From Jimgerdemannia flammicorona (Eukaryota), in the NCBI GenBank assembly GCA_003990765.1, contig RBNJ01000320.1, positions 1 to 33,213 on the forward strand: 33,213 nucleotides of DNA, in the 5' to 3' direction. The position numbers and the translations under genes were made by a program. Shown here piece after piece: positions 3,718-33,213 of the stretch; the first letter of the stretch is position 1, and each line of letters begins with the position of its first letter. Under the pieces are notes generated by a model. The model was not told where the DNA came from. It saw only the letters and a program-made list of their open reading frames with translations, and did no database searches.

Positions 3718-5783
3718 AAGGGAAATTATATAGTTTCAGATACATCCTCTACTACTCTATATCCACTTTCTCCTATGCCCTATCCAGGTTATGCTCAGCA
3801 ATAGCTTCTGCTTCCTCAGTCCTCTTAGCCTCCAATTCAGCCAGGATTTCAGCTATCTCTCCATCTTCCTTTTCCTCAAACTCCTTGTGGTACTCCAAAC
3901 AAGCCTCCTGCCAGAGCTGCAGTCCATGCTACTTAGTCCAACAGTGGACAGCCTGCTCACCTGCCACAACTGCCAGAGTAGCTTCCCTCTCCTTATCTAT
4001 CTCATACCCCTCCTCCTCCAAGTATACTGCCAGAATTTCTGCCTTCAATGCTGCCACCACTCCATCGCCCTGCAGGATCCTTGCCCAATGCTCATCACTC
4101 ATCACTTGGAGGTCAACTTCCCCCAGCTCTTCTGCTGCCAAGTTATTCATCATCTGGCATACCCAGAGCAAGTTTCCCACCTCCTTCCCTTCTGGGGTCA
4201 CTGGCCTCCCTCTATCCAACATCATAGTATCAGTCCCTACACTCATCAACTCATTTCATCCCTCCTCTGAGACATCCACCAATTCCTCCTCTCCAGTTAC
4301 CTCTACCAATCCCCCCTTCTCCACATTTGGGACTCCAAAGTGCACCTGCTGAGCACCGTGCATCAGCACATCCTCCACCATCCTACCTCTCACCACCAGA
4401 CCCCTTCTGATAAAGGGGGAGGGTGAAGGTAAATCCTCCCAGGTTTCCTCCCAAACCTCTAGTGTGTCATCTTCATATGGATTCTTACTCAGCACCTTCT
4501 TGGCCTCCACCCGCCCCCCCTCCTCATTTCTTCCACTACTAGCAGCCCAGACACTTGCCTCAGTACCTCCAGTGGTTGCACTATTGCTTGCCTTCCTCAT
4601 CACCTTCACCCCCATTTTCGCCAACAATTCCCTCTGCCTTCTGCACCCTTAGGACCTCTCCCACACCTCCTTGTTGATGCGGACTCACTTCCCTCCAACC
4701 ACCTCAAGATGTGTCACCTCCTCGAATACCTTCCATACTTTCACCCTCCTCTCCACTGCTCTACTCAACTCCTCCAGTGCTTCCAGCAAATCCTTCTCCT
4801 CCTCCTTGCTCTCCTTTACTCTCATCATCTTATACAAGATAGCCCCCCACACCATTACTGAGGGCCAGTCCCGAGCCTTCCCAGTAGCCTCCCATCCAGC
4901 CAACTGAATCCTGATATCAACATCCCCTATCTGGAGGGAGGTTTCTTCCCACACTCTGAACCCAATATCGACTACCTCCCCATACTCGGCTATGAACTCC
5001 TCGACTCTCTTCCTCATCTCTACAGCAGTAACAGTGGGAACTCCTTTCACCAGAAGCTGCACTACTCTTGGGTCCCACTGCAGATATCTCACCATTGGTA
5101 TGCACACCTTGCTTACTTTCATCCCAGTCTTCAAAGCCTCCTCCAGTGGCCCAGCCTCCTCAAACCCCACCTCTACCCCTTCTAGGCCCTTCAGGAACTT
5201 AACAGATGCTGCACCACTCATCTGCTTCATGATCAGCCCCAGAACCATTTTTGCCATCACTGCCAAGTCCTGGAAATACATCATGACTGCAAATTCCAAG
5301 ATTGACTTCTTGAGTAATAGAGCCACCACCAGTCCCATTATACCATCTGCCAGGTCCCCAGGCCTCATGCCCTTCCCACTACTTAGCTCACCATCAGTAG
5401 TCCCATCTAGATTTTTTTTCCAGATTGCCTGTCACACCCCCATCAGTAGTCCCTGCCTCAGCTGCTACCCCTCCAGCACCACCCCTATGGCCCTCCAGAG
5501 AGGTACCCCCATGAGGTTGCTGCCTTGTAGCCCTCACTAGCACCTTCTCCCCCCTCAGCCAGCTCTCCAGTCCAGCTCTCTGCTGACCCCCCTTCACCTT
5601 CTCCACAAAGCTTACTCTGTCAGACCCTTGACCCCCAGCTCTGCCCCCTCCTCTACTGCATCCTCCCACCAGCAGGCCCCTCATACTTCCCCCCAAGTCA
5701 GGGCCTCTCCCCACTTGCTGCCATTCAAATGCTCCAGGGCCACCCTGCCCAGTATGCACCTCAGGATACTCATTGGTTGCCAT
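3710..5783 (-). pseudogene. LINE ORF1 (gag-like nucleic-acid-binding protein), decayed
   Basis: ORF pieces 4685-5368, 4256-4627 and 3929-4249 are in one frame, which continues to a TAG at 3710-3712 overlapping the ORF2 start region. The ATG at 5783 is in a shifted frame. The position upstream of ORF2 is typical; no specific motif was recognised. Confidence 0.7.
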
Positions 5784-5859
5784 GATACTAGTAGCTTGTC
5801 TCTGGAAACTGTATTGAAAGTGTTGCCAAAAGATTGTATAACCTGAATGTTGTTACTTC

Positions 5860-6239
5860 TTTTTCTTTGTCTTTTCTTAATATTCTACAATCTTTCAGTA
5901 CTTTCTGAACACTTAGAAATCCTTTCTTGGTGCTGAGCATCCACTAGTACTTATTTAGCTAATTACTGAATATCCTGAAAACTTATAGAACTTTATTTGT
6001 TATCATTTGTCATCCTTGCCAAGAACTTTCCTCTTGGCATTTTTCTTTGATTTCTCAGATCCTTCCAGATCCTTCTTTCAGATCTTGTATAAATATCCAC
6101 TTTGTTCTCATGAATAAAGTCTCAGAATATTTTCTCCCAGAAATCCTTTAAGAATACTCGAACCTTTAAATATCTCTTTGAGCTACTTTAGAACCACCAG
6201 AACTAGTTGCTTCCTCATTTAGAAACTAGAACCATTACA
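5860..6239 (+). repeat. 5'-truncated LTR (family E), interrupted by the LINE
   Basis: Aligns with 6726-7193, including TATAAAT..GAATAAAG and the shared end GAAACTAGAACCATTACA. The first ~60 bp are missing where the LINE 5' end sits. Confidence 0.8.
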
Positions 6240-6241
6240 AT

Positions 6242-6397
6242 CATATTGAGTATAAAGCTGAGAAAATCCTTAACAAATAAATCTGCTATCACTGTCCTGA
6301 ATACCTAGTCAAGTGGATGAGTTATCCTAAATATGATGCTACCTGGGAACTACTGGTCAATCTCAAGAACTCTTAAGATCTAGTTCAAGACTTTGAG
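6242..6397 (+). pseudogene. Chromodomain remnant of a chromovirus (Ty3/Gypsy) integrase
   Basis: Manual translation HIEYKAEKILNK*ICYHCPEYLVKWMSYPKYDATWELLVNLKNS*DLVQDFE matches the chromodomain consensus Y.VE.IL..R.....YLVKW.GY....TWEP..NL. It is followed by a PPT and an LTR. Confidence 0.88.
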
Positions 6398-6725: not shown

Positions 6726-7193
6726 TGTAACAATTTCACAGTCATATATATTTAGTCTTAGTACATTTTCACATCTTTTAGTTAGTCTTTTCTTGTCTTT
6801 TCTTGAACATTCTACTATATTTCATCACCTTTTACTTACTTAGAAATCTTCTCTCAGTGCCCAGATACAACTAGAACATTCTTATCTTTTCTTGATACCA
6901 AGCACCTTGTCTTAGCTAGTTATGGAACATTTTGGAACATTGTAGAATAGTATTAGTCAGCTTTGTCAAGAACCTATTTCTTGGTATTTCTCTTTCTTTT
7001 CAAGATCTTTTCAGATCTTTCTTTCAGATCATATATAAATATTCTTATTCTCTGTCTGAATAAAGCTCAGAATATTTTCTCTCAGAAATTCTTCAAGAAT
7101 ACTTGAACCTTTAAGTATCTCTTCAAGCTACTTTAGGTCAACAAAAACTTCCAAATTTAGCTGCTTCCTCTTAAAGAAACTAGAACCATTACA
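6726..7193 (+). repeat. 3' LTR (family E, 468 bp)
   Basis: TGTAA...TTACA termini, preceded by a PPT, with an internal TATA and AATAAA. Homologous to 5860-6239. Confidence 0.85.
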
Positions 7194-7467
7194 ATTATAT
7201 TTGAAGCTCTTGAGACTATATCACTACTTTGGGGCTTGCTTCTGACTTACTTATAAAGCTCTCAGTACTATATTCAAAGCTCTTGGAGCTCACTTATTTG
7301 CTAGCATTGACTTACTTATTATATATATTATCACTATCTAAAGCTCTTAGTACTATATATATATTTGAAGCTCTCAGTTCTATATATATTTGAAGCTCTC
7401 AGTACCTCTTGGGGCTCACTTATTGGCTAGTATTAAAAACATATAAATAAGCTATCTAAGCTATCAT

Positions 7468-7474
<7 letters not shown>

Positions 7475-7523
<49 letters not shown>
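7475..7523 (+). repeat. Poly(A) tract (49 nt), preceded by T8
   Basis: Read directly from the sequence. Confidence 0.95.
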
Positions 7524-7525
<2 letters not shown>

Positions 7526-8354
7526 AATAAAAACAAAATAACCTCTGACCTTCAAACTTATCTAAACCATCTCTCATAACATTTCAATGATCTGAATGTG
7601 ATGATTAGAAAGATTGTTATTTGGTTAAATAATGATAGAAAGAAGACTACTGAATACAAATATAAGATGAAGAAAAAAATGATCAAGAAAGTACTTGAGT
7701 AGTTTATCTTAGCCATTGTTCCTCAAGCTACCTCTACTATTATCTCTCAAGCTATCTCTGCCATTACCCCTCAAGCTGTCTCTGCTATTGCTTTTCAAGC
7801 TTTTACTCTAGTCTTGACTACTACTTTTATCTTAGTCCTGGCCTCAGCCCCAGTCCTGATCTCAGCTGTTCTGACTACTCCAGCCATCTTAGCTACTCTG
7901 GCCACCCTGGCTATAGCCACTCTGGTTGTCTCTGCTATCTCTTCAACTGTCTCTGCCTCTGCCTGCTCTGCTCCTACCTGTCCTGCCTCTATCTGTCCTA
8001 TCTGCCCTACTCCTGCTTATTCTGCTCCTGTCTGCTCTACCTCTATCTGCTCTATCACTTCAAAGTCAAGAGGTCATCCTCTTAAAGCTTGTTATATTTG
8101 TAATAGGTATGGTAAAATATATTGTACTATTCTCAAGATCTGCCAGTATCTTGATCTATCAATCTCTGATATTTTTTTAAGAAAAAGGCCATATAATAAC
8201 TTATGTTGAGTAGTGATTACTAGGACCAGGTATGCTGGCCTTAAATAGATTATTTGGAATAGAGATATAAATGAATACTAGTCTTAAATAGGTTATTTAA
8301 ATATGTATATATAGATTGATGATACAAAATTGATAATATATAATTTATATATCA

Positions 8355-8767: not shown

Positions 8768-10843
8768 TGTTAGAGGGTTGCTTTTTAGGGTAACTGTTAC
8801 ATAGTTCTGGAAGGGTTTTCTGGAAGTTCTAGATATTCTGGAAGACCATTTTCTTATGGTCAAGATCAATTTTGTATAGAGTACGTCCTCTACACTTATT
8901 GATTTCAAGATCAGGTTGATGTCTCAATCAAAGTCCTTTTTCGAACTAGTTCTAGATGTTCAGGATTTTCTGTATTTCAGGAAGTTCAAGAAACTAAGAC
9001 CAGCTTAGTTGAATTGGCATATTATTGCAGACAATACCCAATTAGGAAATTTTGTGATAGAGTTAGGAGTGGGGCCTAACAAGGAGTAGATTTACTTAAG
9101 AGTGGTTTGTATGTTATTAAAGAGGTTTATTTACTATTTATGATATTGCTATACTAGGAGTAGTTGTATAAAAGAATATTGTGGGGAAGTATTCAGGAAT
9201 GTTCTTATATGTTCAAGTCTGTTCAAGTCTGAGATTCTGAGGTCTGGGGGAGGGGGTATTTATACTAGTGAGGGGCTATCTGGACTATACTAGATATGAA
9301 TGTAGCACTAAGTACCTTGCTGAGTCAGAATGCAGTCATATAGTACAAGAGTGATCTGACATGTCAAGAGATCGTCTGACTGCTGAGTCAGTTCACAGTT
9401 ATGTCATATATATAAGGCTAATCTAACTATACTATAACTGCTAAGCTATTTATAGGTTTAGACACTGTCTGGGTAGTCTTCAATGATATCACTATCAATG
9501 ATATCATCTCTGATGAAGTAGTTATCTAGGAAAAGTAGTTTGCAGATTACTTCTCCTTGTTCACTGAGATAATAATATATTGGAACTTCATTACCATCCT
9601 ACAGAATAGTATCTTCTGTCTCATATACTGGATAAGGTATTGGTGGGTGGAGGAGAGGTACATTGTCTTTGCTTTTATCAGATTTGCTGTCTGCATACCT
9701 TCTGTAGATTACAGCACTATGAGTTATGGGATTATAGTAAGCTGGTGGCTGTGGTTCATATTACTCATACTTGGGTGGTGGAGTGGTTGGTTCAATCTCG
9801 AGGGTTATCTGGAGGTATAAGTTGTGTTCTCTGGTTTCTTCATTGTAGTTGAAGTAATCAGGGGTAAATGTGGGTTAGTATTCATACCAGTGGTCATTGT
9901 TTCAATAAGTCTCATATGCTGTTATGAATTGTTGTAAGTTCATCAGCAAGGTTGGTGGTATGATCAGGGTTGTCAGGGATTCTTGGCTTGAGGTCATATC
10001 GGTGTCAGAGAGATCATTGTCTTCTGCTTCATCTTCATTAAAGTGGATTATATCATAGACATCCTTTATGGCATATCTGACTTAGAGTATTTGCAGGATA
10101 TAATTGTTGGGGTGTGGGAAGATTCTGTCTGTGATTTCGATGTACTTGAGGTACTTGTGGTTGAGTTCTTGTATCATATTGTCAATTTGGCCATAGGACA
10201 GAGTAGCAATCATTTTGGCTATAGTAACTTAGAAGTAGAGAATAACAGTGCTATACTTATAGAAGAGTTCTCAGTATTTGCAGGCAATGAGTTTCTGGTG
10301 TTGAGACATCTGGATAATATCTGTATCATGGTAGTATTTGACCATGTCTTCTAGGAGACAACCGATCTGGTAGTAGCTTGAGATTTGTCCAATTTGGTGG
10401 GCCTTATTGAGTATATTTAGGGCATTCTATCGGGCTTCTACAAAATAGAGGAGTGCTAGGCTATGGATATTCATGAGGGGCAGAGGGGGAGTGGCTTGGT
10501 TGACAATGGCATTCCAAATGTCAGTGCAGATATGGGTGTAGATATCAGTGGTCATGTTTGTGTGTTTGGAAGTTGTAGTTGTTGTTTGTTTTGGTTCTCT
10601 GGTTTGATGTGTCTCAGTACTCAGTATATATGTATTTGGTCCTGATTGGTAAGATTCTGTTTATATGAATCTTGTATTCTGTAACTTCATGTTGACTCAG
10701 CTTTGTGCACTGTGACTTCAGTTTGACTCAGCTTTATGATCAAGCAGGTGATTTCCAGATTTGTTCAGAGGTTACATATGATTTCAGTGGCTTGTTCAGA
10801 GGGTGATATGTGATTTCGGTAGCTTGGAGGTTGTGCACTTACA
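8768..10843 (-). mobile_element. Solo LTR, family B (2,076 bp), with 5-bp TSD GTCTT
   Basis: Reverse complement of 14375-16437. Minus-strand termini TGTAAG...CTAACA. GTCTT lies at both 8763-8767 and 10844-10848. Confidence 0.93.
9458..10555 (-). pseudogene. LTR-encoded ORF of unknown function (solo-LTR copy, 1,098 nt)
   Basis: ATG at 10555 and TAA at 9458-9460, the same length and register as 14663-15760. It has sense codons (CAA, CAG, TGG, CAG) at four positions where the other copy has stops. Confidence 0.75.
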
Positions 10844-11918: not shown

Positions 11919-11997
11919 TAATTCAAGATGAATTCCTCACTTTCAAGCTGAACAATGAACAACTACAACAAGAACCCACACAACACAATCAGACAAA

Positions 11998-14066
11998 ATG
12001 GATATGAGACCACCAGTATTCCATGGATATACCTCAGATGAATCAATCATCACCTTCATTGATGATTTCGAGCAGTATGCTGCCATAAGGACCCTGACAG
12101 CAGCACAGCAAGTAGCCCTCATACCCTTCAGCCTACAAGGTCCTGCCAGAGCAGCATTCACAGCTGCAACCCATGCAGAAAATGATACTGATGCTATACT
12201 GACAGCACAGAAGACCTGACTCCGAAATACATACTATACAGATGAGATCAAGCAAGCTTTGAAGGATCAGCTCAACACAACATATCAAGGAATGAGTGAG
12301 GATCCAAACACATTCTATACCAGAATTTGATATCAGAGAATTCTTGCAGATTATGCTACTGCTATCCGAGATCAAGTAGCTGAAGCAACCTTTATAAAAG
12401 AAGTCCACCCAGAAATAGCTATGGCCATCCGCTCATCACCAGTAATTCTGGATCTGCCACAGAAGATCACCTATGCTCAGCAATACTAGAAGCCAGACAC
12501 CCACAAGACCATACAATGGAGAGAGTTATAGGAGTCATAATCGAGATACCTAAGTCAACCAGTGTGATCCCCACCACAATGATCAATCGAAACACACCTC
12601 AGCCCAAAGCTACAGAGTAGCAAAAGAACAGCAATCCTTTGGAGGAACTTACCAAAAGGTTTGCAGAAATGACTGCCCACTTGGGGGATGTAGTAAAGGA
12701 GATCAGAGGAAGAGACTACCACTCTATCCAGAAGTTTGCTGCCACCTCAGACAGAAAGAAAGGTACCTGCTATACTTGTAGAGAAGAAGGCCACTACTTC
12801 TATGAATATATGAGCAAAATCAAGTATAAGGCTCAACCAAGCAATGCTATATGAAACAAGGAGCAGGCCAATACAATTACCTTCAAGAAAATTAGAGATT
12901 CTGATGAAGAAGAATGAGAGCCCTATTCTGCTCAGACTACCAAGAAGGATGTTCGCAAGGAACCCTACAAGAGACCACCAGGAAGACCCAAGAAGAACCC
13001 AGTAAAAAAGTAGATAGAAATGGCCACTGAAAGCCAAGCTGAAGAGATGGACCAAGATATGGAGCTAGAGCAAGCAGTTCAAGATATTATCTGAGGAACT
13101 ACCCCAGCCAGCAAAGGAGAAAAAGAAAAGAAACTTTGCAAGACCAAGACTTTCAAGTATGATATCTTCAAGGACCTTAGCCAACAAAAGGTCAATGCAA
13201 CCTTTGGTCAGCTTGCAGAAATCCCAACATTCAGACAACAAATGAGGTTTGGACTCACCGAAACAACCAAGAAGCAAGGATGGAAGATAACTAAGGCCAA
13301 TAATGTTCAAGAGAACTCAGGAGAAGAAAGTGAAGACAATTGCAAAACCTCTGCCTATGCAATATGTCAAATCGAAGATAGAATCTTTGAAGTCATCATC
13401 AATACTAGAGCAGGAGGATGTCTTTTCAGCAAGAAAGCAGCAGACCACCTAGGTTGGGAGGTTGAAGAAGCAACCAAGTTGGTATTTATCACAGTAGATA
13501 GCACAAGAGCCACCCCTCTGGGAAAGATCTGAGATGTCCCCATTAAGATCGGAGGAGCAACCATCCCAGTAGATGTAATTGTAACTAATGCCACCAACTA
13601 TGACATCCTCATTGGCAATCAATGGCTTCACAAAGCCAGAGCAGTAATCAATCTCAATGCCCAGAAGATGCAAATCACCTACTGGGGACAGAAGATATGA
13701 ATTTCCATCAATGTCAACAAAGGAGTCTTGCCTGACATGGAGGAAGAAGAGAGCAAGCAGGAGGAAGCTTATATGGTAACTATTCCAAAGAGGAAAGTAG
13801 GATGGATGAGTGAAGAAGAATGGTGCAAGAAGATCGCAGAAGGCTATGCACCACAAGAAGTCTGTCCTCACAGGACCAAGATATACTGTATGGAGCATAT
13901 CAACGATTACTATCAGTACACCATCAGAATCAGAAAGATCCACCAGGAAAAAAGACAGAAAGCTCTTGAAAAACAAGTCAGAGAAAAGAAGGAGGAGGAA
14001 GATGATGAACTACCAGCCCTCCTGGAGGATAGTAATGATGAAGAAGAAATTAAGGTCAAGATCTGA
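11998..14066 (+). pseudogene. gag-protease of element A
   Basis: Gag start MDMRPPVFHGY..FIDDFEQYA..LQGPA; knuckle CYTCREEGHYFYE (~12768-12810); protease FEVIINTRAGG (decayed IDTGA) and YDILIGNQWL. Confidence 0.85.
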
Positions 14067-14069
14067 AGG

Positions 14070-14374
14070 ACCCACCCTGACACAGTCTTGCCAGAATACA
14101 AGTCGGAAAATGCAACTGAAATGGACATCGCCACAGTAGAAGAAGTCATACTAGAACCCCAGACAACCACCCTACTTACAACTGGACTGGAGATGACCAT
14201 CCCAAAGGATCATATTGGGATTCTCAAGACAAGAAGCAGTCTGGCCAGAAGCAAAATTACAATTGAAGGAGGAGTTATCAATTCTGACTATACTGGAGAA
14301 ATTCTGCTCATTGCTAGGAATCACAATTCTACAATCTCATTCCCAGTCAAGAAGAAGGACCAATTAGCACAGAT
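14070..14374 (+). pseudogene. Trimeric-type dUTPase domain of element A, cut in motif 4 by the LTR insertion
   Basis: ATEMDIA (motif 1), RSSLA (motif 2), GGVINSDYTGEI (motif 3) and KKDQLAQI (motif 4), followed by LTR sequence. Confidence 0.9.
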
Positions 14375-16437
14375 TATAAGCACACAACCTCCAAGCCACC
14401 GAAATTACATGTCACCCTCTGAACAAGCCACTGAAATCACATGCAACCTCTGAACAAATCTAGAAATCACCTGCTTGATTACGAAGCTGAGTCAAACCGA
14501 AGTTACAGCACACAAAGCTGAGTCAATATGAAGTCACAGAATACAAGATTTATACAAATGGAATCTTACCAATCAGGATCAAATGTATATATACTAAGCA
14601 CCAAAATACATCGAATCAGAGAACCAAAACAAACAACAACTACAACTTCCAAACACACAAACATGACTACCGAGATCTATACCTGTATCTGCACTGACAT
14701 TTGGAATGCCATTGTCAACTGAGCCACACCCCCCCTGCCCCTCATGAATATCCATAGCTTAGCACTCTTCTACTTCATAGAAGCCCGATAGAATGCTCTG
14801 AATATGCTTAGTGAGGCCCACCGAATCAGACAAATCTCAAGTTACTACTAGATCAGCCGCCTCCTGGAAGACATGGTTGAATACCACCATGATACAGACA
14901 TTACCCAGATATCTCAATACCAGAAGCTCATCACTCGCAAACATCAAGAACTCTTCTATAAGTATAGTACCATTATTCCTCGCCTCTGAGTTACTACCAG
15001 CAAAATGGTTGCTACCCTGTCCTATGGCCAAATTGATGATATGATACAAAAACTCAACCAGAAGTACCTTGAGTATGTTGAAACCACAGACAGAACCTTC
15101 CCACACCCCAATGATTATATCCTGCAAATGTCCCAAGTTAGATATACCATGAAGGATATCTATGATATAATCCACTTCGATGAAGATGAAGCAGAAGACA
15201 ATGATCCCTCTGATGCTGACATGACCTCTAGCCAAGGATCTCTACCAACCCTGATCACTCTGTCAACCTTGCCGATGAACTTACAACAGTTCATAACTGC
15301 ATACGAGACTTATTGGGACAATGACCACTAGCATGAATACCAACCCGCATTCACCCCTGATTACTTCAACTACAACGAAGAGACCAGAAAACACAACTTG
15401 TATCTTCAGACAACCCTCAAGATCGAACCAACCACTCCACCACCTGAGTACGAGCGACATGAACCATAGCTGCCAGCATACTATAACCCTGCAACTTACA
15501 GTACCATAACCTATAGAAGATATACAGACAGCAAATCCAATGAAAGCGAAGACAATATACCCATCCTTCATCCACCAACACCTTATCCAGCCTACGAGAC
15601 AGATGATGCTATCCTGTGGGACGGAGACAAAGTCCCAATGTATTACTACCTTAGCGAACAAGGAGAAGTAATCTACGAACCACTCTTTCTAGACGACTAC
15701 TTCATCAGAGATGATGTCATTAATGGTGATGTCATCGAGGACTACCCAGACAGTACCTAAACCCATAAATAGCCTAGCAGTCATAGTATAGTTAGATTAG
15801 CTTTGTATGATGTGACTGTGAACTGACTCAGCAGTCAGACGATCTCTTGATATGTCAGATCATACTTGTACTATGTGACTGCATTCTGACTCAGCAAGGT
15901 ACTAAGTGCTATATCCATATTCAGCATAGTCCAGATAGCCCCTCACTAGTATAAATACCCCCTCCTCCAGACCTCAGAATCTAAGACTCGAACACACAAG
16001 GACATTCCTGAATACTTCCCCACAATATCTCTTTACACAACTACTCTTAGTATAGCAATATCATGAATAGTGAATAAATCTATTCAAATAACCCACAAAC
16101 CACCCTTAAGTAAATCTGCTCTCTGTTAGGTCCTACTCCTAACCCCTTTACGAAATTTCCTAATTGGGTATTGTCTGCAACAATACGCCAATTCAACTAA
16201 GCTGGTCTTAGTTTCTTGAACTTCCTGAAATATGGAAAATCCTGAACATCCAGAACTAGTCCAAAAGAGAACTTAGGTTGAGACATTAATCTGATCTTGA
16301 AATCAATAAGTATAGAGGATGTACTCCATATGAAATTGATCTTGACCATAAGAAAACGGTCTTCCAGAACATCCAGAACTTCCAGAAAACCCTTCCAGAA
16401 CTATGTAATGGTTACCCTAAAAAGCAACCCTCTTACA
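14375..16437 (+). repeat. 5' LTR of element B (2,063 bp)
   Basis: Matches the solo LTR end to end. Start TATAAG (decayed TGTAAG), end CTTACA, followed by a PBS. TATAAATA at ~15950. Confidence 0.92.
14663..15760 (+). pseudogene. LTR-encoded ORF of unknown function (365 codons)
   Basis: One frame with no frameshift from ATG 14663 (MTTEIY..) to TAA 15760 (..EDYPDST). Six internal stops, all revertible by C>T or G>A. It includes the track ORF 15005-15331. Confidence 0.8.
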
Positions 16438-16439
16438 AC

Positions 16440-17683
16440 TTGGTAGCAGCAGTTTACAATCCAATTCCACTTCAAGACACTTCCTCACCCCACTACAAAC
16501 CCCTCTGCAAATTTCTACAAGTTGGTATAAAGCCCAACCTCTGAACTGGAATTTATCCTGAACTATCTGACAATCTAGAGAGAATTGAACCTAACATATA
16601 AGGACAATTTGACCTCCACACCTACAACAAGTAGAACAAACTTCATTCAAAGAAAGAAGTACTCAGGTTAAACCAGCAAATAGGCAAAACCCTATTCACC
16701 AAACTCCTTACACTACACCCAGTAAGTCAAGATGAAGAAGGTCTTATTGAAGCCTTCTTTACTCTTCTCAATAAGAGTTTTGTCAGCTCTACAACTCTGA
16801 GTGATCTAAGACAACCAGCAGCAGTCTTTCTAGCCTTAGTTCCTCATAAAGCCCAAGCCTCTATAGCCAAGTGGCTCAACTCTACCGATTTTCACTATAC
16901 CAGGACCAAGACCACATTATACTACCAATTCCAGAACAGCAAGGCCCACCATATTCTTAAAGAAGAAGTAAGAGAAACCCTTTACCAACTACCTGACCCT
17001 GAACCTGAAGCAGGCCCTGCTATAGCCCTACCTGAATCCGAAACCAATACCGAACTTGAACTTGACTTTGAATTAAGTCCCTCTGAAATCAGATATACAA
17101 CTGATTCTGTCTACTTCAATGCTGAGCAAACCTAATTACACGGGGACCAAACTGAAGAGGAGGAGAAGTATCTTACTGAATTCGATCCAGGATACACTAC
17201 CGAAGGAGACACACTCCCATCAGGACAGAATATACCTACACAACAACAAACAGCTATCTATCAAGCCCTTACTCCAGATCCACAACTACTACTTCAACAA
17301 CTTATACAGACCCAAAGAACTCCATCACACTCTGTACCAGTACCTCAAGTAGTACCAGTAACACCACTACCAGCAGTCCAACCACCTCTAGTAAACAACA
17401 TGGTGAACCAACAGATTCTTGACCTGACAGCCCAAGTAGCCATAATGGCAGCAACCATTACTACCTTAGCTGAACAGACCCGACCTACCAAAAATCTGAG
17501 CCTACCTACCTTTAATGGTACTGCACAAGAAGTCCAAAGCTTCATTAGTGTAGTTGATACCAACTTCGAAGCCAATCAATGGACCAATGAGCGAGTTGCT
17601 GACTGCGTTCTGACAAACAATCAAGACCATACTCTGGAACAACTCTTTGCTACCACTACAGCCTATGTCTGCTGAGTTGTTAC
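16440..17683 (+). pseudogene. Element B gag with a long N-terminal extension, truncated by the LINE fragment
   Basis: A single frame runs from the PBS to LSLPTFNGTAQEVQSFISVVDTNFEANQW (a gag-like PxFxG motif). The internal stops are CGA/CAA/CAG-type revertible. Confidence 0.7.
16441..16452 (+). promoter_or_regulatory. Primer-binding site of element B
   Basis: TGGTAGCAGCAG begins 3 nt after the LTR end. Confidence 0.7.
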
Positions 17684-18882
17684 TTTTTTTTTTTTTTTTT
17701 TTTTTTTTGTTTAATGAACTCTATGTCCCGCGGAATTTTATTGGAAGGGAACCTAGACTGTATAGGCCAAAACCCTCTCCCACCACCCACCAAGCACTGC
17801 CCCCCCATTAACCTAGGCTAGCTATTGTCCAGCAGCTCGACCATGCCAGGTGCAGCAGGGCAAAAAAAAGCCCGTACCTCATTCTGTGCACCATGCTCTC
17901 CCTACCACCAGGGGAAACCCAGCCATACACCAATGACCGAAAGCGCATGCCCGAGAACCCAACGTATATACAAGACCATGCCTGAGCTGAATAGAATAGC
18001 CCCTGCCACCCCAAAGAGAATGACAGGCAAAGAAAAAACCCTCATCAAAGTACAACACAGTGGGTAGGGCCTGGTTCTCCCAGTCGAGGTGAGTAAAGGA
18101 CTTACACATGAGGTGGGAGGAAACCCCCAATACCCCACTACTCAAGCCTGCAGGCCTCGATCACGTTGCCATATCAGCTCCCGGTTCTAGTTGAGTGCAG
18201 CCAAGATGCCTGAAATGGGTAGCCTCGGGCCCCCCGACCCCCCCTGACAACTGGGACCTCACCCCGCTACCCACCAAAAGAAGCTGAGAGTGACACCTAC
18301 CACCTAACCATGCTGCACCAATCAAAAGGCCCCACCAAAGCAGTACCTGCCCCAGCCCCGACGACCGCCCCCAGCCTGGCACCCTACTGGTCTACCGTTA
18401 TCGCCCTTCCTCCTATCTGTAATGGCCATCTCCCTCCCAACCCGACAACACCTGAAAAGCAGTCACCTATGCCAGAACCGTGCTCGCCAGGAAGCTCGCC
18501 AAAGCCAGAGGGCCCCACCACAGGCACCGAAGACCTGCAGGTAACCTACACTGGGCACTTGACACCCAAGGTCAGCTGACTTTCTACATAGCCCGAGATA
18601 TACCGAGACAACACCTTGTTGGTGATGGCAAAAGGAAGAAGGTGCCGCACCAAAATGGGTACACCCCAGATGCAGCTGAAGGCACCAGAATCTGCGAAAA
18701 AGTGGAGGAAGCACTGATCCGACACTGATAAAGGGGCAACTCATCACCATTGCCCTCCTCCCACCATATCCCTACAGGCACAGCAAATCAACCCGAGGTA
18801 GAGGGGGTAATATTAGGGAAAAGGGGACTCAGAAGATCACCTATCAAACCTTGTGACCAGTAAGGTAGTGGAGAAAGGAGCT
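17684..18882 (-). mobile_element. 5'-truncated non-LTR retroelement (LINE 3' end) with poly(A) tail
   Basis: T25 at 17684-17708 is a minus-strand poly(A). The minus strand is G-rich, like the LINE at 1-5855. LPPLFRRFWCLQLH and LWLWRASWRARF resemble LINE ORF2 C-terminal motifs. No TSD was found. Confidence 0.6.
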
Positions 18883-19454
18883 GTTGTCTGCATTCCCAGA
18901 GAACCTACACCACCCAAGTTATTATTCCCAGAAGAGCCTGATTTATGCCATCTGAGTTATTCATCATTCTCAGTGAGCCAAATCAAGTTATCTGCCAAAT
19001 TATCAAAATGTTCTGTATAAGGAACCTGCTATACTACATAGAGATCATCATGCAGAAATCACAAGAGGAGAACTGCTAAATTTCCAGACTATCACATATA
19101 TAAGGAGATTGTTGCACTATATAGAAATCACCTGCCATCCAAGAAGGAGAACCACTAAATTGCCAGACTGTTATACACAAGATCACTATGCTATATATAA
19201 ATTTCTACCAATTCCCAGTTGAGCCAAGAAGGAAATCCATTTATATACAAATTGCCACTACATCTAGAGAACCATCTCAATAAGGAAATTGCTTGCAGAT
19301 ATCCAGCTTTAACTATTATACCACTAAACACCAATAAGGATCTCAGGAATCTTAAAACATTTTGTTACTTTTTGACAAAGTAACTGGGGGCTCAAGCCAA
19401 ACTATATCAATCCCCAACCTTATAATTAGCCTCCATTGAGCCAGACACATTACA
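18883..19454 (+). repeat. 5' LTR of element C (3' 572 bp only)
   Basis: Aligns with ~27826-28351 and ends GAGCCAGACACATTACA. Confidence 0.9.
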
Positions 19455-19456
19455 TC

Positions 19457-19474
19457 TGGGGGCTCAACTGGGAA
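19457..19474 (+). promoter_or_regulatory. Primer-binding site of element C, tRNA-Pro-like
   Basis: TGGGGGCTCAACTGGGAA resembles the tRNA-Pro PBS TGGGGGCTCGTCCGGGAT used by MLV. Confidence 0.75.
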
Positions 19475-21890: not shown

Positions 21891-23180
21891 GTAATTGAAG
21901 AAGAAAAAGAAAGTCACTATTCAGGAGGAATATGCCAGCAGCGAAGAATCTATCACAGAAGAAGAGGAAGAATCTGAAGATGGAAATGATTCCCAACTTA
22001 ATCCCCGAATTAACCTGGTGGATGACAGACCAGAAGACAATGTGTGGGCCAAGAATACCATCTCTATCACCATTGGAGCTATTGCAGGAGAAATCAAAGA
22101 ATGCCCTATTTACCTCAAGAGACACAAGTGTCTCAAGCATTCCTCCAAGACTATGAGAATAAGAAAATCGCCTGGTACAGCCTGCCCAGAGTACAGAAGG
22201 AAGAAGAAGAAATGCAGACATGTTCCAGAAATACCTGCAACTGAAGCTGCAGAAGTGCAAGCAATTTGGAGACAAGAATCATCTGAGGAAGAAGAAGTTC
22301 CTGACCAAGAAGTTTCTGAACAAGAAGTACCTAAAAAGGAAGAAGTCCCTGAGCTCATTCCCTGGGATAACCCTCACTGGACACCACCTGAAGATAATGA
22401 CCCTTGGAATATAGAAGAAGGACCCAGTACAATCACTATTATCCCCAAGAAAGAAACTTATCAAGAAAAAGCTTTTCAGCTAGGAAGATGTCCACACCAA
22501 TGGTCTTCCACTCTCCCTGAGACTACTGCTATCAGTATCATCTATTGGACCAACAAGAAAGACAGAGACCCCAGAGACTGGAACCCCCAACTACACTTAT
22601 ACAGTTAACCACCTTTCAAGAAGTTACCACAAAGCTACAAAGTCGATTTAGAGGACAAGGCTTCTTCACCTAAACAGAAATATACCCCTTATCTATCCTT
22701 CCCCCAACTTATGATCAAGATGGGTACTGATTTCTGAGACAACAGGAGATAAACAGCCAGAAATATCATTTCCAAGCAATGGGATATTGCAACTATAGAA
22801 GATACCCTAACTGCCAAGTCTGCAAACATCAGAAGATTCACCTTAGTCATAATATTGCAGTCCATACTTTAAAGAGAGGAGACAACAGAGGTCAGATCTG
22901 AAAAAGCTAAATCAAGAAGCCAGGAAGAAGAATCCTCAAGATCTACGATTTGAGAGAAGACATCCTAGCTCTTATCAGACATGCAACCTGTCAAGAATGG
23001 GTAAAAGATGCTACCAACTTCATGGAAGCCCTAGACCCTACAGGAAGAAGAGAAATTAATTATCTCTGAGACCCCTCTACTGGTGCCAGATGGCCACACC
23101 TCAACCTTAGAGCTTGGAGGCTCTCTGCTAGTAGAGCTTCAGCCTTAGGAAAGCCTGAACTTAGTAAGGATATTGCCCAG

Positions 23181-23582
23181 TATGCCCTCCTACATCCTAA
23201 GGCTAAACCCCTGACCAAAGCCCACCCTGAGGATATAGGATATGATCTTTATAGTCTGAAGGATGAATCTATCAAGCCTGGAAAAACCTTCATGATCAGA
23301 ACTGGATTAGTCATGCAGCCACCCCAAGGAGCTTACATCTGATTGACCTCAAGGTCTGGACTTGCCAGACAAGAAATAACTGTAGAAGGAGGAACTATTA
23401 ACCCAGGATATGCAGGCAAAATCAAGGTTATCCTATATAATAGCAGTGCAGAATGGTACTGAATCATTAGAGGACAGAAGATTGCCCAAGCAGTCTTCAT
23501 GAAGATCAGGACCCTACAATCACAAGAAGTATCTGAACTGACTGAAGGAACAAGGTAAGTCAAAGAATTTGGAAGTTCAGAC
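23181..23582 (+). pseudogene. dUTPase domain of element C (all five motifs)
   Basis: Manual translation LHPKAKPLTKAHPEDIGYDLYS..TGL..TSRSGLA..EGGTINPGYAGKIKVILYN..GQKIAQAVF..TR*VKEFGSS. Not in the ORF track because of stops. Confidence 0.92.
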
Positions 23583-24004: not shown

Positions 24005-25405
24005 AATATTGGAGAAGAATTGACACCCCAACAATAGCAACAACTAGTAGAACTTCTCAACAAATATCAAGATATCTTCACTACTGATTATGGCAACCTG
24101 CCATACAACCCATCATATCACCACAGCATAAATACAGGAAATGTAACACCCATCTGGCAGAAACCCTATAGAATACCCCATCACTTGAAAATATTTGAAA
24201 AAGAGCACATTTAAGAACTCTTAGATAATGGAGTTATCTGACCCTCTACCAGCCCTTGGGCCAGCCCTATACTTATTGTACCAAAGAAAGAAGGATGGAG
24301 ACTTTGTGTGGACTACAGGAAACTCAATTCAGTCACTGAAAAAGATGTCTATCCTTTGCCCAGAATTGATGATCTTTTGGACCAGTTACAAGATGCCAGA
24401 TAGTTCAGTAGTATGGACTTCTTTACAGGATTTCATGAAATCCCCATGGACTCCAAAGACATTCAAAAGACAGCCTTCCTTGCCCTAGGAAAACTGTTTG
24501 AATACCTCTGAATGCCCTTTGGACTTTGCAATACACCCCCCACCTTCAAGAGGATGATGAATTCAGTCTATACCCCTTTGATCTACCACTGCCTGATTGT
24601 ATATATGGACAATTCCAACATCTATTCAGCAAATTTTGAAGAACACCTGCACTACCTAGAGGAATTCTTCAAGCTCACCTACAAGAACTATTTGAGATTG
24701 AATGCAAAGAAATGCTACTTTGGGAAACAGAAACTTGAATTCCTGGGATTCATAGTTTCAAAAGAAGGAATCCATACAGACCCAAAGAAAACTGAGAAGA
24801 TCAACAATTGGTCAGTACCTAAGACCCCAAAGGAAATACTATCATTCCTGATGCTAGTATCCTATTACAGAAGGTTTATCAAGGACTTTGCCCAAATTGC
24901 TGCCCCAATCTGAATTTTTCTCAAGAAAGGAGTACTATTCAAATGGACAGAATCACAAGAAAAAGCCTTTAAAGAACTCAAGAACCACATGACTATAGCA
25001 CCAATTATTATATACCCCAATCTACAAAAGTCATTCATCCTGTATACAGATGCTTCCAAAGATGGCCTAGGAGCAGTTCTAGCCCAAGAAGGACTCGATC
25101 AATAGCACTATGTAATAGCTTATGCAAGCAGAGCTACCAATCAGCAGCAGATGAACTATGGTAGCACCAAACTGAAATGTCTTGCAGTCATATGAGCGGT
25201 CACCCTGTTCAAGCATTACCTTATTGGAAAAAGATTCATCCTGATTATAGATCATGCAGCCCTCAAATGGCTATTCAACCATAAAGAACCCATCAGAATT
25301 CTAGCCTGATGGATCCTTATCCTTCAGGATTATAAAATTACCATCATCCACAAAGCAGGGAAAGCCCACAACAATATTGATGTACTTTCTCACCAGCCCC
25401 AATGA
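24005..25405 (+). pseudogene. Reverse transcriptase + RNase H of element C
   Basis: [45 protein letters not shown] (YMDD decayed), FLGFIVS; RNase H LYTDAS..GLGAVL, DHAALKWL, GKAHNN.DVLS. Confidence 0.95.
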
Positions 25406-26460
25406 ACCAGAAGAAGGGTGTCCTGAGGAACTACACTCTAAAGGAAGCTCCTCAGACCATTAAGACACAAGAAGTTCTCATCTGAAAAGAACATCAGAAA
25501 GCCCACCAAGAACAGGTGAATGTAGAAGAGAAGTTGTGAACAACATACCAACATTGGCCCAACCTTAGAACATAAGTCTGGGATATACTCAAGAAATGTG
25601 ATACCTGCCAGAAGTACCAAGGAAGAAAGAACTATCAAGCATTACTACAACCAATCATACCACCAGACAATATCTTTCAGAGATAGAGAATAGATGTAAT
25701 TGGACCTCTACCAGTTATATCAAGAAGAAACAAATACATCCTTATATTTGTAGAACATCTGACCAAGTGGCCTGAGGCTTTCTCAATGGAAATTACAGAT
25801 GCCCTAACTATTGTAGACCTTCTCCATAGACTCACACTCAGATATGGACCCCCAGAAGAACTCATCTCTGATCAAGATACAGAATTCATCAATAATATAA
25901 TCACAAGTTATGCTTGAATTCACAAGATCTATCTCAAATAGACCACATCATACTATCTCCAGACCAATGGTATGACAGAAAGGATGAACCAGACCATCAA
26001 GAAAGGACTTGCCCAAGTCAATTATACCAATTGGAACCTCTGCTTACCTGAGATCCTATGGGAAATTCAGAACACCCCTGCCACCTCTATCAAATAAAAG
26101 CCATTCAAAATGATGTTTGCTAAGAAAATGAGAACTACTGACTATAAGAACCTTGGAGATCTCCTCAAGAAGGCAGAACAGTTATATAATCAGGCTCGAG
26201 TTCAGATTACCAAAGTCCAAGAAAGACAAAAGAAGTACTATGACCAGAAACAGAAGGATTAGAAGATCAAGATTGGTGATCAAGTACTAGTTTGGAGAAG
26301 CATGATTGAAACAAACTTTGCTGCCAAACTGGAGCCCAAATAGAAAGGATCTTACCTTGTATATAACATCAGAGGAACCAGTATCTATTTAAGAAGTATG
26401 GATGGACAAACCCTGAGAATACCAGTATATATCAATTGCCTCAAACTATATCTTCCCTCT
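25402..26460 (+). pseudogene. Integrase of element C
   Basis: HHCC (EHQKAH..CDTCQK), IDVIGPLP, LTKWPEA, LISDQ, QTNGMTERMNQT and the GPY/F-like region KLEPK*KGSY. The 3' end is approximate. Confidence 0.92.
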
Positions 26461-26981
26461 ATACCACGAGCCAAAGAATTGATTAGCACCTCTAGAAATT
26501 GGTCCTCAGCTCCTTCCAGGCCCTACCAGTTCCTCTACCTCAATTTGGCCAAGCTAATGGAAACCTCCTTCAGAGGATTCAAGTTTACCAAGAAAATCTT
26601 ACCTTGGCCAGATGCCTACTACAAGTCCACCAACTGCAGGTCTATTATGTAATTGGTGAACAATTACAGAACCTTCTATCCCCAGAGCAGACCTACATCA
26701 GAAATACCACAGATCTGATCAGAAGAGACACTATCACTGCAGACAGATTATATACCATTTACAAATGAAATGTTACTGCTCTGATACAGGCACAGTTCTC
26801 TCTGAATAATATTCAAGGAATGAACCCTATTGCCTATTTGAGCATCATCAATTCTATTGAAATTCTATTCCCTGAAGAAGAAGAAGAGCCTATAGAATAG
26901 AGTGACCCTAGTATAGACAATGAAGATGATGGAACAGGTATAGATGTAGAAGCAGCTTATGCTTATTGAGATGATGACTAA
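26448..26981 (+). pseudogene. Extra ORF between integrase and PPT (env position), unknown function
   Basis: One frame extends track ORF 26499-26768 through revertible stops to TAA 26981 and has an acidic C-terminus. The start codon is uncertain. Confidence 0.65.
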
Positions 26982-27008: not shown

Positions 27009-27020
27009 AGTGGGGGCTGA
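27009..27020 (+). promoter_or_regulatory. Polypurine tract of element C
   Basis: AGTGGGGGCTGA lies directly before the 3' LTR. Confidence 0.7.
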
Positions 27021-28351
27021 TATAATAGACCAAAACATACCACCTGAATTATAACTTAGCCAGATGATGTAAACAATTGGCATACTTAACCAAATGATGT
27101 AGGCTCTCAGCATGACATCCAGTATATCATAGTTACTCATATTGCTACACTTATAATTAGCCAGACATACCAGATAGGGTCTGTTTATCTATACAGACTC
27201 TGTATACTATATAGACTCTATATACTGTATAGGTCCTGTATACCGTACAGACTCTATAATCTGCCATAAGTAGCAGATCTATAGTTAGCTATATAGCAAC
27301 CAATTTGTATAAATTACCCCAGAGATAAGAGTGAATAAACCTCAGTTCAAAATACAAATACCAAAGAAGTCTTTAAAGATTGAGCATTGGTCCTCTTTCC
27401 ACTCTAGTTCACTTTCTAATACAAAGCTTGAAGATTTTGCTGCTAAGTTTAAGAAAGAACTTTGCCACCTTTGGAATTATTAGTTTGTTTGCCAGATAAG
27501 CCTGAAGATTTCCATCTAAGAGAAAGCTGCCTTACTTAAGCCAGTTTCTAATGCAACTTCACAGTAATCCATTTACATAAACAAAGCCAGTCTTTGATAC
27601 AACTTTGCTAAGAGACCCTTTCCAAGAAGCTGCTAGTATGTTTCCCACCTACCGATTCAGAAAGAATCTGTGCCACCCAAGTGGTATTCTCAGTTGAAGC
27701 TACTGATTCAGAAGAATCCATGCCATCTGAGTTATTTCCCAGAAGCCCACTAATTCAGGAGAATCTGCATCATCTAATATTTTCAAGTTATCCATCATAT
27801 TCCCAGTTGAAGCCACTATTTTCAAGTTGTCTGCATTCCTAGAGAACCCATACCACTCAAATTATTATTCCCAGAAGAGCCTGATTCACACTGTCCAAGT
27901 TGTTTGTCATTCCCAGTGAGCCAAATCGAGTTATCTACCAAATTATCAGAACATCCTGCATAAGGAACCTGCTGTACTACACAGAGATCATCATGCAGAA
28001 ATTGCATAAGAAGAACTGCTAAATTGCCAGACTATTACACATATAAAGAGATGCTAAATTACCAGACTATCACACCCAAGATCATTGTACTACATATAAA
28101 TTTCTACCAATTCCCAGTTGACCAAAAAAGGAAATCTATTCACACACAAATTGCTGCTATATCTAGAGAACATCTCAATAAGGAAATCACTTGCAGATAT
28201 CCAGCTTTGACTATTATACCACTAAATACCAACAAGGACCTCAGAAATCTTAGAACATTTTGTTGTTTTTGACAAAGTAACTGAGGGCTTAAGCCAAACT
28301 ACATCAACCCCCAACCTTATAATTTGCCTCTATCGAGCCAGACACATTACA
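27021..28351 (+). repeat. 3' LTR of element C (1,331 bp)
   Basis: Start TATAATAGAC aligns with TGTGACAAGC at 29311. End CATTACA matches the 5' LTR. Confidence 0.9.
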
Positions 28352-30768: not shown

Positions 30769-30786
30769 TGGGGGCTCAACTGGGAA
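30769..30786 (+). promoter_or_regulatory. Primer-binding site of element D, tRNA-Pro-like
   Basis: TGGGGGCTCAACTGGGAA, identical to the element C PBS. Confidence 0.75.
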
Positions 30787-31342: not shown

Positions 31343-33213
31343 ATGGCCACCTCATTGCCAATCTTTGCAGGATACCCGGAGGAAGACCCCAGAGAATTCC
31401 TTGATGGAATCAAAGGAATTGCAGCCTTGAGGAATCTCTCAGATGAAAGGAAGATTGCCATCTACAAAGCTCAACTCAGAGAACCAGCCAGGGGGATTTT
31501 CCATCAAACAGCAAACAACCCAGATTCTGAACTAGCAAGACAGATACAAGCAGCAGCTTCCTATGAGCTAGAATATCAGGCTATGGTCTACTGGCTTATA
31601 GAAAAGTATGCAGGAAATGAAACCCGCCACAAGGCCCAGGAATCCATCATGGGAATGAAGATGAATCTTGGAGAATCACCTAGAGCCTTCTTTACAAGAA
31701 TCCAGAAGAGGATGCACTCTGCCGGGTTCAATGCCACCAACCAAGACATCATAGGTCCAATGACCTTCATGAATGGGATTCCTCCAAATATTGCCCAGCA
31801 TGTCTACACCCTAGGCATCAGAAGGTCTGAAGAGCAAGTAGATGCAGCCCAAGGATTCTTTGATGTCAGGCAAGGAACTACCTGGAGTGACCATGACAAG
31901 AAGGAAGATAAAGAAGATATCCTGGTCAAAGCCCTACAGGGACTCCTTCAAGGACAAGAAAGGTCTGAAGAAAGAAGGCTGGCCAAGGAAGGAAAGAAAG
32001 ACAGAAGTGAAATTCAAGACCTCAGCTCCAAGTTAGACCGATTGGTTGGGCAGATTGAAAAACTCACCACACGCGAAAATCGGGACTACCAAAACAACAG
32101 AGGATACCCACCACAGAGGAGCCAAGGTTATCCGCCAAGAGATAACAGGAATTACCAGCAAGAAGAAAGAAGGTACCCTGCCTGAGACAGAGCCCAAGTC
32201 CAGTGCTTCCACTGTGGACAATTCAGACACTATGCCACTGAATGTGACAACAGAAGAAGTGACCGAAGGGACTCAGAACCACCAAACCAAAGGAATGACA
32301 CCCAGTACAAGAAGACTGAAGCCCATCCTGTCGAAGATTTCGAGGAAGCAAGCAACAGTGAAGACTACAGTGACCTAGATTTGTACCCTACCAAGGTTAC
32401 CACCCGAAAGACAGTCTACCCAGCAGAGAAAAGAAAGAGACCTATGGGAAGACCATCCAGGAACATCAGCAGAAGAATCATCCAAGAAGAAGATGAAGAA
32501 CATGAGGAGGAACAAGTTGAAACACCTCCCCGAACCACCTCACCCTTTGTGCCCGAGACAAACGAGTTGCTGCCAGAAGATGAAGAAATGGAACAAGAAG
32601 AACGGGAACCTGCTGCTCCAAAGCCTAAGAAGAAGTACACCCTGAAGACCATGCCTAGGGATATTTACAATAAAGCCTGGCAGAAGATTCAAGAAGCCAA
32701 GATAGAAGTTCCTCTCCTACAGTTCTTGCAACTGACACCAGCTGGAGTCCGAAACAAATTGTTAAGAACCACCAGGTCTAGCACTGGCTGAGTTTCAATC
32801 CCACAGCAAGAACCAGCTTCCATCCCAGTTCAAGCAGCGGAAAGACATGTCAGCACCTACTTACATGGGGATATTGGAGGACAAAAAGCGAAAATCCTCA
32901 TAGACACAGGAGCAGCTGTCTGTGTCATTGCCAAACGATTCCTGGACACCCTCCAATGGCCCATTGATGGACCATCCAACCTCAGCATCATAGTAGCAGA
33001 TGGAGTCTGAACTCAACCTCTTGGAGAAGTATGAAATATTACCATCTCCCTTGGACACATTCAGTTCTCCATCCCCAAAGCTGTTGTCACCGAAGCTGTC
33101 ACCTATGATATGATTCTTGGCACCAACTGGATGAAGGAAATGAATGCAGTTGTGGATATTGGCCAACAAGTACTCAAGTTCGACTACCGAGGCAAGAAGT
33201 ATAGAGTTAAGGT
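31343..33213 (+). pseudogene. gag-protease of element D
   Basis: The 280-aa track ORF continues in frame past TGA 32183 into CFHCGQFRHYATEC (CCHC) and ILIDTGAAVC (protease active site, ~32895-32925). Confidence 0.92.

Follow-up and report, generated by a model that had tools for sequence, protein, structure and literature searches.

Ty3/gypsy retrotransposons of several groups carry extra open reading frames (ORFs) between pol and the 3′ long terminal repeat (LTR). Such ORFs have been described in plant elements (Vicient and Casacuberta, 2020; PMC7264820), and fungal elements labeled "add. ORF" appear in a figure legend of a paper that also treats the dUTPase-bearing PosPlaTy3 (Novikova et al., 2010; PMC2864245). 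In bdelloid rotifers, the elements Juno, Vesta, and TelKA have a dUTPase between protease and reverse transcriptase together with diverse ORF3s (Rodriguez et al., 2017; PMC5408684), and this position of the dUTPase is on record for basidiomycetes and bdelloids (PMC2864245, PMC5408684). The CERV protein of the Caenorhabditis elegans element Cer1, which is not an env protein, is made from a spliced mRNA, and export of the genomic RNA requires it (Sun et al., 2023; PMC10309623). Little is understood of the additional genes of LTR retrotransposons; in the few cases examined (env and CERV), they proved to govern central stages of the life cycle. Here we describe two genes of this kind in a stretch of 33,213 nt from Jimgerdemannia flammicorona (assembly GCA_003990765.1, contig RBNJ01000320.1, forward strand, positions 1 to 33,213; the whole stretch is called the window below). 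One of them, ORF3, lies behind the integrase of a decayed gypsy-type element (element C), and the other lies inside the LTR of a second family (family B).

Element C resembles the extra-ORF elements cited above in having a sense-strand gene in the env position and a dUTPase between protease and reverse transcriptase, and many of the genes described there are likewise not env. Unlike the types named in the available excerpts of these papers (env-like, GDSL lipase, DEDDy exonuclease), ORF3 has neither a Pfam match nor a transmembrane segment. The same excerpts place no such ORF inside an LTR, unlike the arrangement in family B (PMC7264820, PMC2864245, PMC5408684). CERV is encoded downstream of the integrase, as is ORF3, and shows that an ORF in the env position can have a regulatory role; on the other hand, it is a protein of 517 residues read in the polyprotein frame, and the likeness is one of position, with no sequence kinship claimed (PMC10309623).

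For a gene inside an LTR, the systems to compare are retroviral. The sag gene of mouse mammary tumor virus (MMTV) lies wholly in the unique 3′ region (U3) of the LTR, and nef of the human and simian immunodeficiency viruses (HIV/SIV) and bet of foamy viruses overlap U3 in part; MMTV Sag is a type II membrane glycoprotein. The family B gene would share with these a location within or reaching U3, and so a presence in both proviral LTRs and at the 3′ end of the genomic RNA. In contrast to these retroviral genes, to which it is unrelated in sequence, the B ORF lies wholly in a retrotransposon LTR and persists in a solo LTR, and the B protein has no segment of transmembrane grade. Narrow phrase searches of the open literature, with subscription journals outside their scope, found no description of an LTR-borne gene in a retrotransposon.

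The explanation that in our view best accounts for both genes, with a probability of about 0.55, is that ORF3 in element C and the gene inside the B LTR share a family and that the polypurine tract (PPT) lies on different sides of the gene in the two elements. The features that bear on this explanation are the following.

26466..26981, + strand: ORF3 of element C, a decayed copy of 171 codons plus stop, for a conserved 171-residue accessory protein; terminal TAA at 26979-26981
14663..15760, + strand: LTR-borne ORF of copy B2, 365 codons plus stop, interrupted by 6 in-frame stops and spanning LTR positions 289-1386
9458..10555, − strand: LTR-borne ORF of copy B1, also 365 codons plus stop, interrupted by 8 in-frame stops and free of indels when compared with B2
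14375..16437, + strand: LTR B2, 2063 nt, a 5′ LTR inserted in the dUTPase of a third gypsy-type fragment
8768..10843, − strand: LTR B1, 2076 nt, a solo LTR with a perfect 5-bp direct duplication, AAGAC
16441, 3 nt past the end of LTR B2: primer binding site (PBS)-like sequence TGGTAGCAGCAG, TGG-initiated, followed by open frames at 16635-17672

ORF3 makes up the last 516 internal bases of element C, ending 28 nt 5′ of the PPT-like run and 36 nt 5′ of the 3′ LTR. A preliminary description of the window had reported an extra ORF between integrase and PPT at 26448-26981, and this holds, with the gene proper at 26466-26981, because its relatives share a Met start position and a W-[DN]-D-[DN] end. 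The strings quoted there match exactly in frame: the reading of 26448-26981 is ..ALPVPLPQFGQ..VHQLQVYYVIGEQLQNLL..ITADRLYTIYK, then a stop, ..SLNNIQGMN.., and an acidic tail that ends in DDD before the terminal stop. In the window copy the initiator is no longer a start codon, and the frame is interrupted by five in-frame stops (26484, 26493, 26766, 26898, and 26967). An HMMER search with this frame through all 1.84 billion representatives returned 5 relatives, with E values from 8.7e-37 (P0005) to 4.9e-12, and a profile search gave 16 relatives at E<=0.1 among 995 candidates. None of these database relatives (P0005-P0020) contains a stop, and their identity to the window frame is 46-75%; P0010, P0011, and P0012 reach 70-75% identity at 78-99% coverage, and the full-length members P0010, P0011, and P0013 have 169-172 residues. 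A Met stands at the ORF3 start position in 10 of the 12 relatives that cover it (9 of the 12 are predicted to begin there), and all 8 relatives that cover the other end have the W-[DN]-D-[DN] C-terminus at the same end point as the window frame. In P0005 the N-terminal extension corresponds to the integrase C-terminus of the window as read out of frame (local score 162), and the upstream extensions of P0014 and P0015 show the same image more weakly (scores 52 and 70). Because the P0005 extension is an out-of-frame image of the integrase end, the site of ORF3 directly after the integrase is conserved as well. Judged by these relatives, ORF3 is a genuine gene, conserved in sibling copies, and not a chance frame. 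A non-coding chance frame was ruled out as a candidate by the intact relatives.

Family B is a true LTR. Its two copies in the window are 85% identical over 2082 nt (self-blastn) and are separate insertions; they are mutually inverted and do not form a direct pair. In both copies the homology runs from TGTAAG (TATAAG in B2) to CTTACA (CTAACA in B1). B1 is a solo LTR, since it is flanked by the AAGAC duplication, and B2 is a 5′ LTR, since the PBS-like site and open frames follow its end. The claim that this LTR encodes a protein stands on its TG..CA ends, the target duplication, the PBS-like site, intact relatives, and the ratio of nonsynonymous to synonymous divergence (dN/dS). Two intact database proteins match the B ORF. 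One (P0021; 128 aa, 80% identity, E 1.2e-66), the sole match among 757 candidates, covers the N-terminus from MTTEIY and has sense codons at both stops that B1 and B2 have in common; the other (P0004; 247 aa, 63% identity, E 7.8e-98), the sole match among 497 candidates, covers the C-terminal 68% of the ORF. Between B1 and B2, dN/dS is 0.22 in frame (dS 0.52, dN 0.115) against 0.70 and 1.0 in the off-frames, as computed by the Nei-Gojobori method, which is blind to the strong transition bias (269:22) that the off-frame controls carry as well. The ratio is 0.24 for the N-terminal 135 codons and 0.21 for the remainder, and all three indel events in the alignment of the two LTRs fall downstream of the ORF, none inside it. 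Together these observations show that the B ORF is a real gene that evolved under purifying selection. TATAAA (LTR 1576/1580) and AATAAA (1699/1713) are the only such hexamers common to both copies, and both stand 3′ of the ORF; their placement suggests that the B gene is in U3.

The B strings quoted in the preliminary description are present at ~14729-15020 (+) and ~10489-10200 (−), but its "consensus" blends the two copies. It had also likened an acidic stretch of the B protein to the ORF3 tail, and here the likeness gives way: the B ORF runs ~190 codons further past that stretch. Beyond the ORF3-like part, the B protein consists of a Tyr/Pro-rich extension of ~190 residues. The maximal 19-residue hydropathy in the B family is 0.57-1.52, and its N-terminus is not hydrophobic.

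The similarity between ORF3 and the B protein is confined to their N-terminal parts, in which 48-62 residues align. Every method recovers the same register, with P-L-P at residues 23-25 (C) and 24-26 (B) from the start Met, Y-x-I-G at 61-64 (C) and 62-65 (B), an ungapped stretch of 36 residues from P-L-P to Q-x3-Y-Y-x-I-G-x2-L, and an offset of 1 residue between the start Met codons; the matched positions are the most conserved columns of the C family. Profile-profile comparison with hhalign gave a probability of 4.2% with 6 versus 3 rows (P 0.0098, 33 columns), 5.4% with 17 versus 4 rows (P 0.0071, 47 columns), and 6.7% in a separate run on the whole profiles (score 25.9). When C was aligned to the N-terminal 135 columns of B, the score was 26.0 (probability 16.7%, P 0.0015); the C-terminal part of B scored 15.9, level with reversed controls (15.7 and 13.8). 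No column shuffle reached 26.0, neither in 200 shuffles of B (mean 12.2, maximum 19.9) nor in 200 of C (maximum 23.1).

Searches with profile hidden Markov models (HMMs; Z=1) gave matches in both directions. The C model scored P0021 at 9.6 bits (nominal P 3.9e-5), P0003 at 5.9, P0002 at -0.0, and P0004 at -0.3 bits, and the B model scored P0014 at 9.7 bits (nominal P 2e-5) and the window ORF3 frame at 3.7 bits, with 12 of the 17 C-family sequences below 0.01. Shuffled sequences attained these scores in 2 of 2000 trials for P0021 and 1 of 2000 for P0014, which puts the true p at ~0.0005-0.001. Among natural decoys from the window, the C profile gave at most 3.3 bits on 584 ORFs of at least 30 aa and at most 6.7 bits on 939 read-through chunks of 130 residues, and reversed decoy sets reached 4.8-5.8 bits; on B1 it gave 10.3 bits for the ORF piece and 12.1 bits for the chunk. 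Among 277 window ORFs the two are each other's best non-self match (C profile 10.3 bits, next 3.3; B profile 5.0, next 2.3). Homology seems the likelier account, since the match is reciprocal, lies on the diagonal that aligns the starts, and joins ORF3 to the one further 3′ accessory ORF; residues 1 to ~130 of the B protein probably belong to the same family as ORF3. The earlier proposal of one family comes out divided: the match recurs in the proposed register at an empirical p of ~0.001, but an hhalign probability of just 5-17% leaves it on the border of the rule by which that proposal was to be dropped, the lack of a significant profile-profile match. Later pairings of the two proteins (R..Y..Y at ~95-100, M.AT..Y at ~115-124, and an F-acidic run) were seen by eye and have no statistical weight.

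Structure prediction adds a likeness of layout. The AlphaFold2 (AF2) model of the B protein (pLDDT 31.1) has a predicted first helix at 3-18 from the Met, then a Pro loop and helices to ~135-142, as in the C model. The feature neighbors of P0010 and P0021 in the ESM Atlas are the same five cluster sets, at 0.90-0.93; we take this as no more than a lead, since hub clusters for orphan helical proteins would look alike.

Several points weigh against this explanation. The pairwise comparisons of C and B are not significant alone: BLASTP gave 22.3 bits against B1 (16/55 identities, E 0.017 in a 948-letter database) and 19.2 bits against B2 (E 0.18), and Smith-Waterman scores were reached by shuffles in 12 and 31 of 1000 trials for B1 and in 49 and 71 of 1000 for B2. 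The probability that hhalign itself assigns to the match is just 4-17%, and the nominal P values from HMMER (2-4e-5) are ~25-fold too optimistic by the shuffles. About one chance match of ~10 bits is expected somewhere in a scan of ~1000 window chunks, the pair was chosen by eye and post hoc, and the B profile is shallow (4 sequences, 3 of them over the N-terminus). Both AF2 models are poor (49.7 and 31.1), so that alike helix layouts mean little, and they are too poor to superpose. The short internal part of B has no likeness to the gag of C, so that the elements are not close kin; in tblastx, neither the B internal part nor the B LTR had real similarity to the internal region or LTR of element C. 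The database scans with ORF3 (HMMER library and profile search) returned no B-type proteins, and the C/B score is far under a database-wide threshold. The U3 placement of the B ORF rests on two hexamers, and its true start codon is uncertain, the window copies having upstream in-frame Met codons. Finally, no known domain or structure backs a function for either ORF, and the expression of both is putative.

These points can also be read as saying that ORF3 and the B ORF are both real but unrelated, and that the shared motifs reflect chance or convergence of Gln/Leu-rich helical proteins with a low-complexity acidic run. We regard this as possible, if somewhat doubtful. It would account for the low hhalign probability, for pairwise scores that 1-7% of shuffles reach, for the ~10-bit match expected by chance in a whole-window scan, for the unrelated gags, for an alignment of only 48-62 residues, and for a long C-terminal extension of B that has no counterpart in C (hhalign 15.9). 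It accounts less well for the reciprocal top non-self matches, with margins of 7 and 2.7 bits, for a C profile score 5.4 bits above 939 natural decoys, for the failure of all 400 column shuffles to attain the hhalign score, and for a match that is ungapped over 36 residues, sits on the start-Met diagonal to within 1 residue, and falls on the best-conserved columns of the C family.

Two other alternatives concern one gene each. ORF3 could be a C-terminal extension of pol, reached by a −1 frameshift or derived from an ancestral in-frame tail, so that the product would be an integrase with an acidic tail. It does overlap the pol frame, which is open up to 26649, with a −1 offset, and three of the 12 relatives (P0005, P0014, and P0015) are open upstream of the usual start, two of them without a Met there. 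This is nonetheless improbable, given the Met shared by most relatives as actual or predicted start and given that the upstream extensions are an out-of-frame image of the integrase coding sequence, as simple overlap predicts; a pol tail past the GPY/F-like module is unsupported by the relatives. A chromodomain after that module was likewise looked for, and Pfam gave no chromo match for 26344-26649, 26496-26765, or P0001, nor for the intact relatives at E<=10; ORF3 was rejected as a chromodomain or integrase tail for want of a Pfam match and because it has its own Met. As to family B, the repeat might be an internal 3′ piece (ORF plus LTR) that by chance occurs in two copies, with nothing encoded in an LTR. 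The inverted rather than direct orientation of the copies, and a window that holds no complete two-LTR B element, are what such a duplication would lead one to expect, but it is very improbable: the homology ends exactly at the same termini in both copies, one copy has the perfect 5-bp duplication of a solo LTR, the other is followed after 3 nt by the TGG-initiated PBS-like site and then an open frame, and the ORF begins 288 nt inside the LTR boundaries. A non-LTR duplication was rejected on the termini, the target duplication, and the PBS-like site.

The ORF3 protein itself is not env-like, as the preliminary description had maintained. In four intact C-family proteins the maximal 19-residue Kyte-Doolittle mean is 0.94-1.36 and the N-terminus is not hydrophobic; hydropathy thus indicates no transmembrane segment or signal peptide in these proteins, and no env Pfam family was matched. 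An env remnant was ruled out, there being no transmembrane segment. The AF2 model of ORF3 (17-row alignment) has low confidence (pLDDT 49.7) and places helices at 3-18, 34-69, 74-81, 86-101, 103-109, 113-118, and 121-134, followed by a disordered tail. The protein, soluble and of 171 aa, is predicted from such low-confidence models to be all-helical to about residue 134. Its last 35-40 residues include 16-18 acidic and zero basic ones, with conserved Trp, Tyr, and Phe. In this tail (26862-26978) two conserved Trp stand in acidic context, ..LEWSD.. and ..YWDDD at the C-terminus. The tail may resemble acidic activation domains, the Arp2/3-binding acidic "A" motifs, and the W-acidic kinesin-light-chain motifs, a likeness that is a lead only.

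Searches for known relatives of either protein gave little. Pfam returned nothing at E<=0.01 for ORF3 or the B protein and nothing shared or meaningful at E<=10 (LST1 0.062, Peptidase_C21 0.2, HHH_RecD2 0.36). The best sequence match in the PDB was a coiled-coil dynein regulatory subunit for the ORF3 profile (E 0.05) and had E 2 for the B profile, and Foldseek of the ORF3 AF2 model against BFVD gave 0 matches at E<=0.001 (best 0.38). The ESM Atlas model of P0010 (pTM 0.68) has generic helical hairpins as structural neighbors, at TM-scores of ~0.35.

The likeliest function of ORF3 may be that of an adaptor which regulates how the element is expressed or how its RNA is handled, a role suggested by a helical domain joined to an acidic aromatic tail without basic residues. 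The helical domain would bind, and the tail would recruit a host factor to the RNA, DNA, or particles of the element; we offer this function as a conjecture, and an unlikely one in its particulars. Because ORF3 sits behind ~7 kb of gag-pol, out of reach of scanning on the genomic RNA, it would need a spliced or subgenomic message from the far 3′ end of the 9-kb RNA, as for errantiviral env and Cer1 CERV.

The host element of ORF3, element C, is a Ty3/gypsy (Metaviridae-type) retrotransposon, with the pol domain order, TG..CA LTRs, a PBS-like site, and a PPT-like run all present. It lies on the + strand, is decayed, and has the order gag, protease, dUTPase, reverse transcriptase, RNase H, integrase, and then ORF3.

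18883..19454, + strand: 5′ LTR remnant of copy 1, the last ~570 nt (self-blastn)
directly after that remnant: PBS-like sequence TGGGGGCTCAACTGGG, TGG-initiated
23070-23339: dUTPase, between protease and reverse transcriptase (Pfam E 3.8e-5)
24512-24910: reverse transcriptase, RVT_1 (Pfam)
24914-25102: RNase H, RT_RNaseH_2 (Pfam)
25687-25914, + strand: integrase core, rve (Pfam E 2.9e-6)
~26344-26450, + strand: GPY/F-like C-terminal integrase module, by eye
27010..27017, + strand: PPT-like purine run GTGGGGGC, directly 5′ of the 3′ LTR (from the sequence)
27018..28351, + strand: 3′ LTR of copy 1, 1334 nt, TGATAT..ATTACA, no long ORF, start fixed by the copy 2 alignment
32792-33007: aspartyl protease of copy 2 (Pfam)

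The 3′ LTR matches both the remnant at 18883-19454 and copy 2 (self-blastn). Copy 2 starts at ~29290, leaves the window, and is 86% identical over 2.8 kb (self-blastn). In its gag frame (32186-32788) a C-x2-C-x4-H-x4-C knuckle can be read, and Pfam zf-CCHC is silent there at E<=0.01. Copy 1 retains a truncated 5′ LTR. A GC-rich (0.53) stretch at 17800-18883 stands in place of the first ~810 nt expected for that LTR, and has no match to 27018-27825. The string GGGGGCT is common to the PPT-like run (27010-27017) and the PBS-like site (19457-19472, also 30769-30784).

Around family B, the window holds two further features.

~11950-14370: third gypsy-type fragment (gag, protease, dUTPase), with its dUTPase match at 14067-14450 (Pfam E 1.7e-18)
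14392..14546, + strand: tandem sub-repeat arrays of the B LTR, 32 nt x 2.1-2.7 and 31 nt x 2; also in B1 at 10761-10826

A dUTPase between protease and reverse transcriptase is found in two different gypsy-type elements of the window (14067-14450 and 23070-23339). The sub-repeat arrays fall within the initial 170 nt of the B LTR, immediately 5′ of the ORF, and could be enhancer or promoter repeats. The window contains no complete two-LTR B element and no 3′ internal end of a B element.

As a whole, the window is a mosaic of decayed retroelements (self-comparison, six-frame ORFs, Pfam). The ratio of observed to expected CpG is 0.0-0.37 in every segment, an extreme depletion, and transitions outnumber transversions 269:22 and 305:37 between repeat copies (8-12:1), which fits heavy cytosine methylation or decay resembling repeat-induced point mutation. 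Most in-frame stops fall where intact relatives carry sense codons. The spacers between elements are AT-rich (27-28% GC). On the − strand, 1-5850 (~50% GC) holds decayed remains of non-LTR type, similar to long interspersed nuclear elements, with a weak RVT_1 match at 1626-1829(−) (E 0.0069) and, by eye, endonuclease-like and reverse transcriptase N-terminal-like frames. Homopolymer-type A/T tracts at 7473-7530 and 17675-17714 match inversely, the second lying where the B internal part breaks off. A 250-nt AT-rich direct repeat (6005-6247 and 6952-7201, 78% identity) adjoins Cys/Ser-rich low-complexity frames at 7699-8206.

If ORF3 and the B gene do share a family, their layouts could be linked by the tract that sets the start of U3. 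The PPT lies 3′ of the gene in element C and would lie 5′ of it in family B, where reverse transcription would copy the gene into both LTRs and the gene would survive in solo LTRs. Movement of the PPT across the gene would be the simplest link between the two layouts, and such a shift fits their geometry. Tentatively, and with less confidence than in the shared family itself, we propose a single accessory family on either side of the PPT in two lineages of one genome, its B member lying wholly in U3, bearing a Tyr/Pro-rich extension, present in both LTRs, kept under purifying selection, and persisting in solo LTRs.

Two features are noteworthy in their own right: a conserved orphan family of soluble ORF3 proteins in dUTPase-bearing gypsy-type elements, and a 365-codon gene under purifying selection wholly within an LTR. 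If the proposal is true, family B would be the equivalent of MMTV sag among retrotransposons and would show, in nature, an LTR boundary that has jumped across a gene. If the two genes form one family, movement of the PPT would alter an accessory gene in its dosage, its expression context, and its persistence, and solo LTRs would scatter intact coding sequences through the genome.

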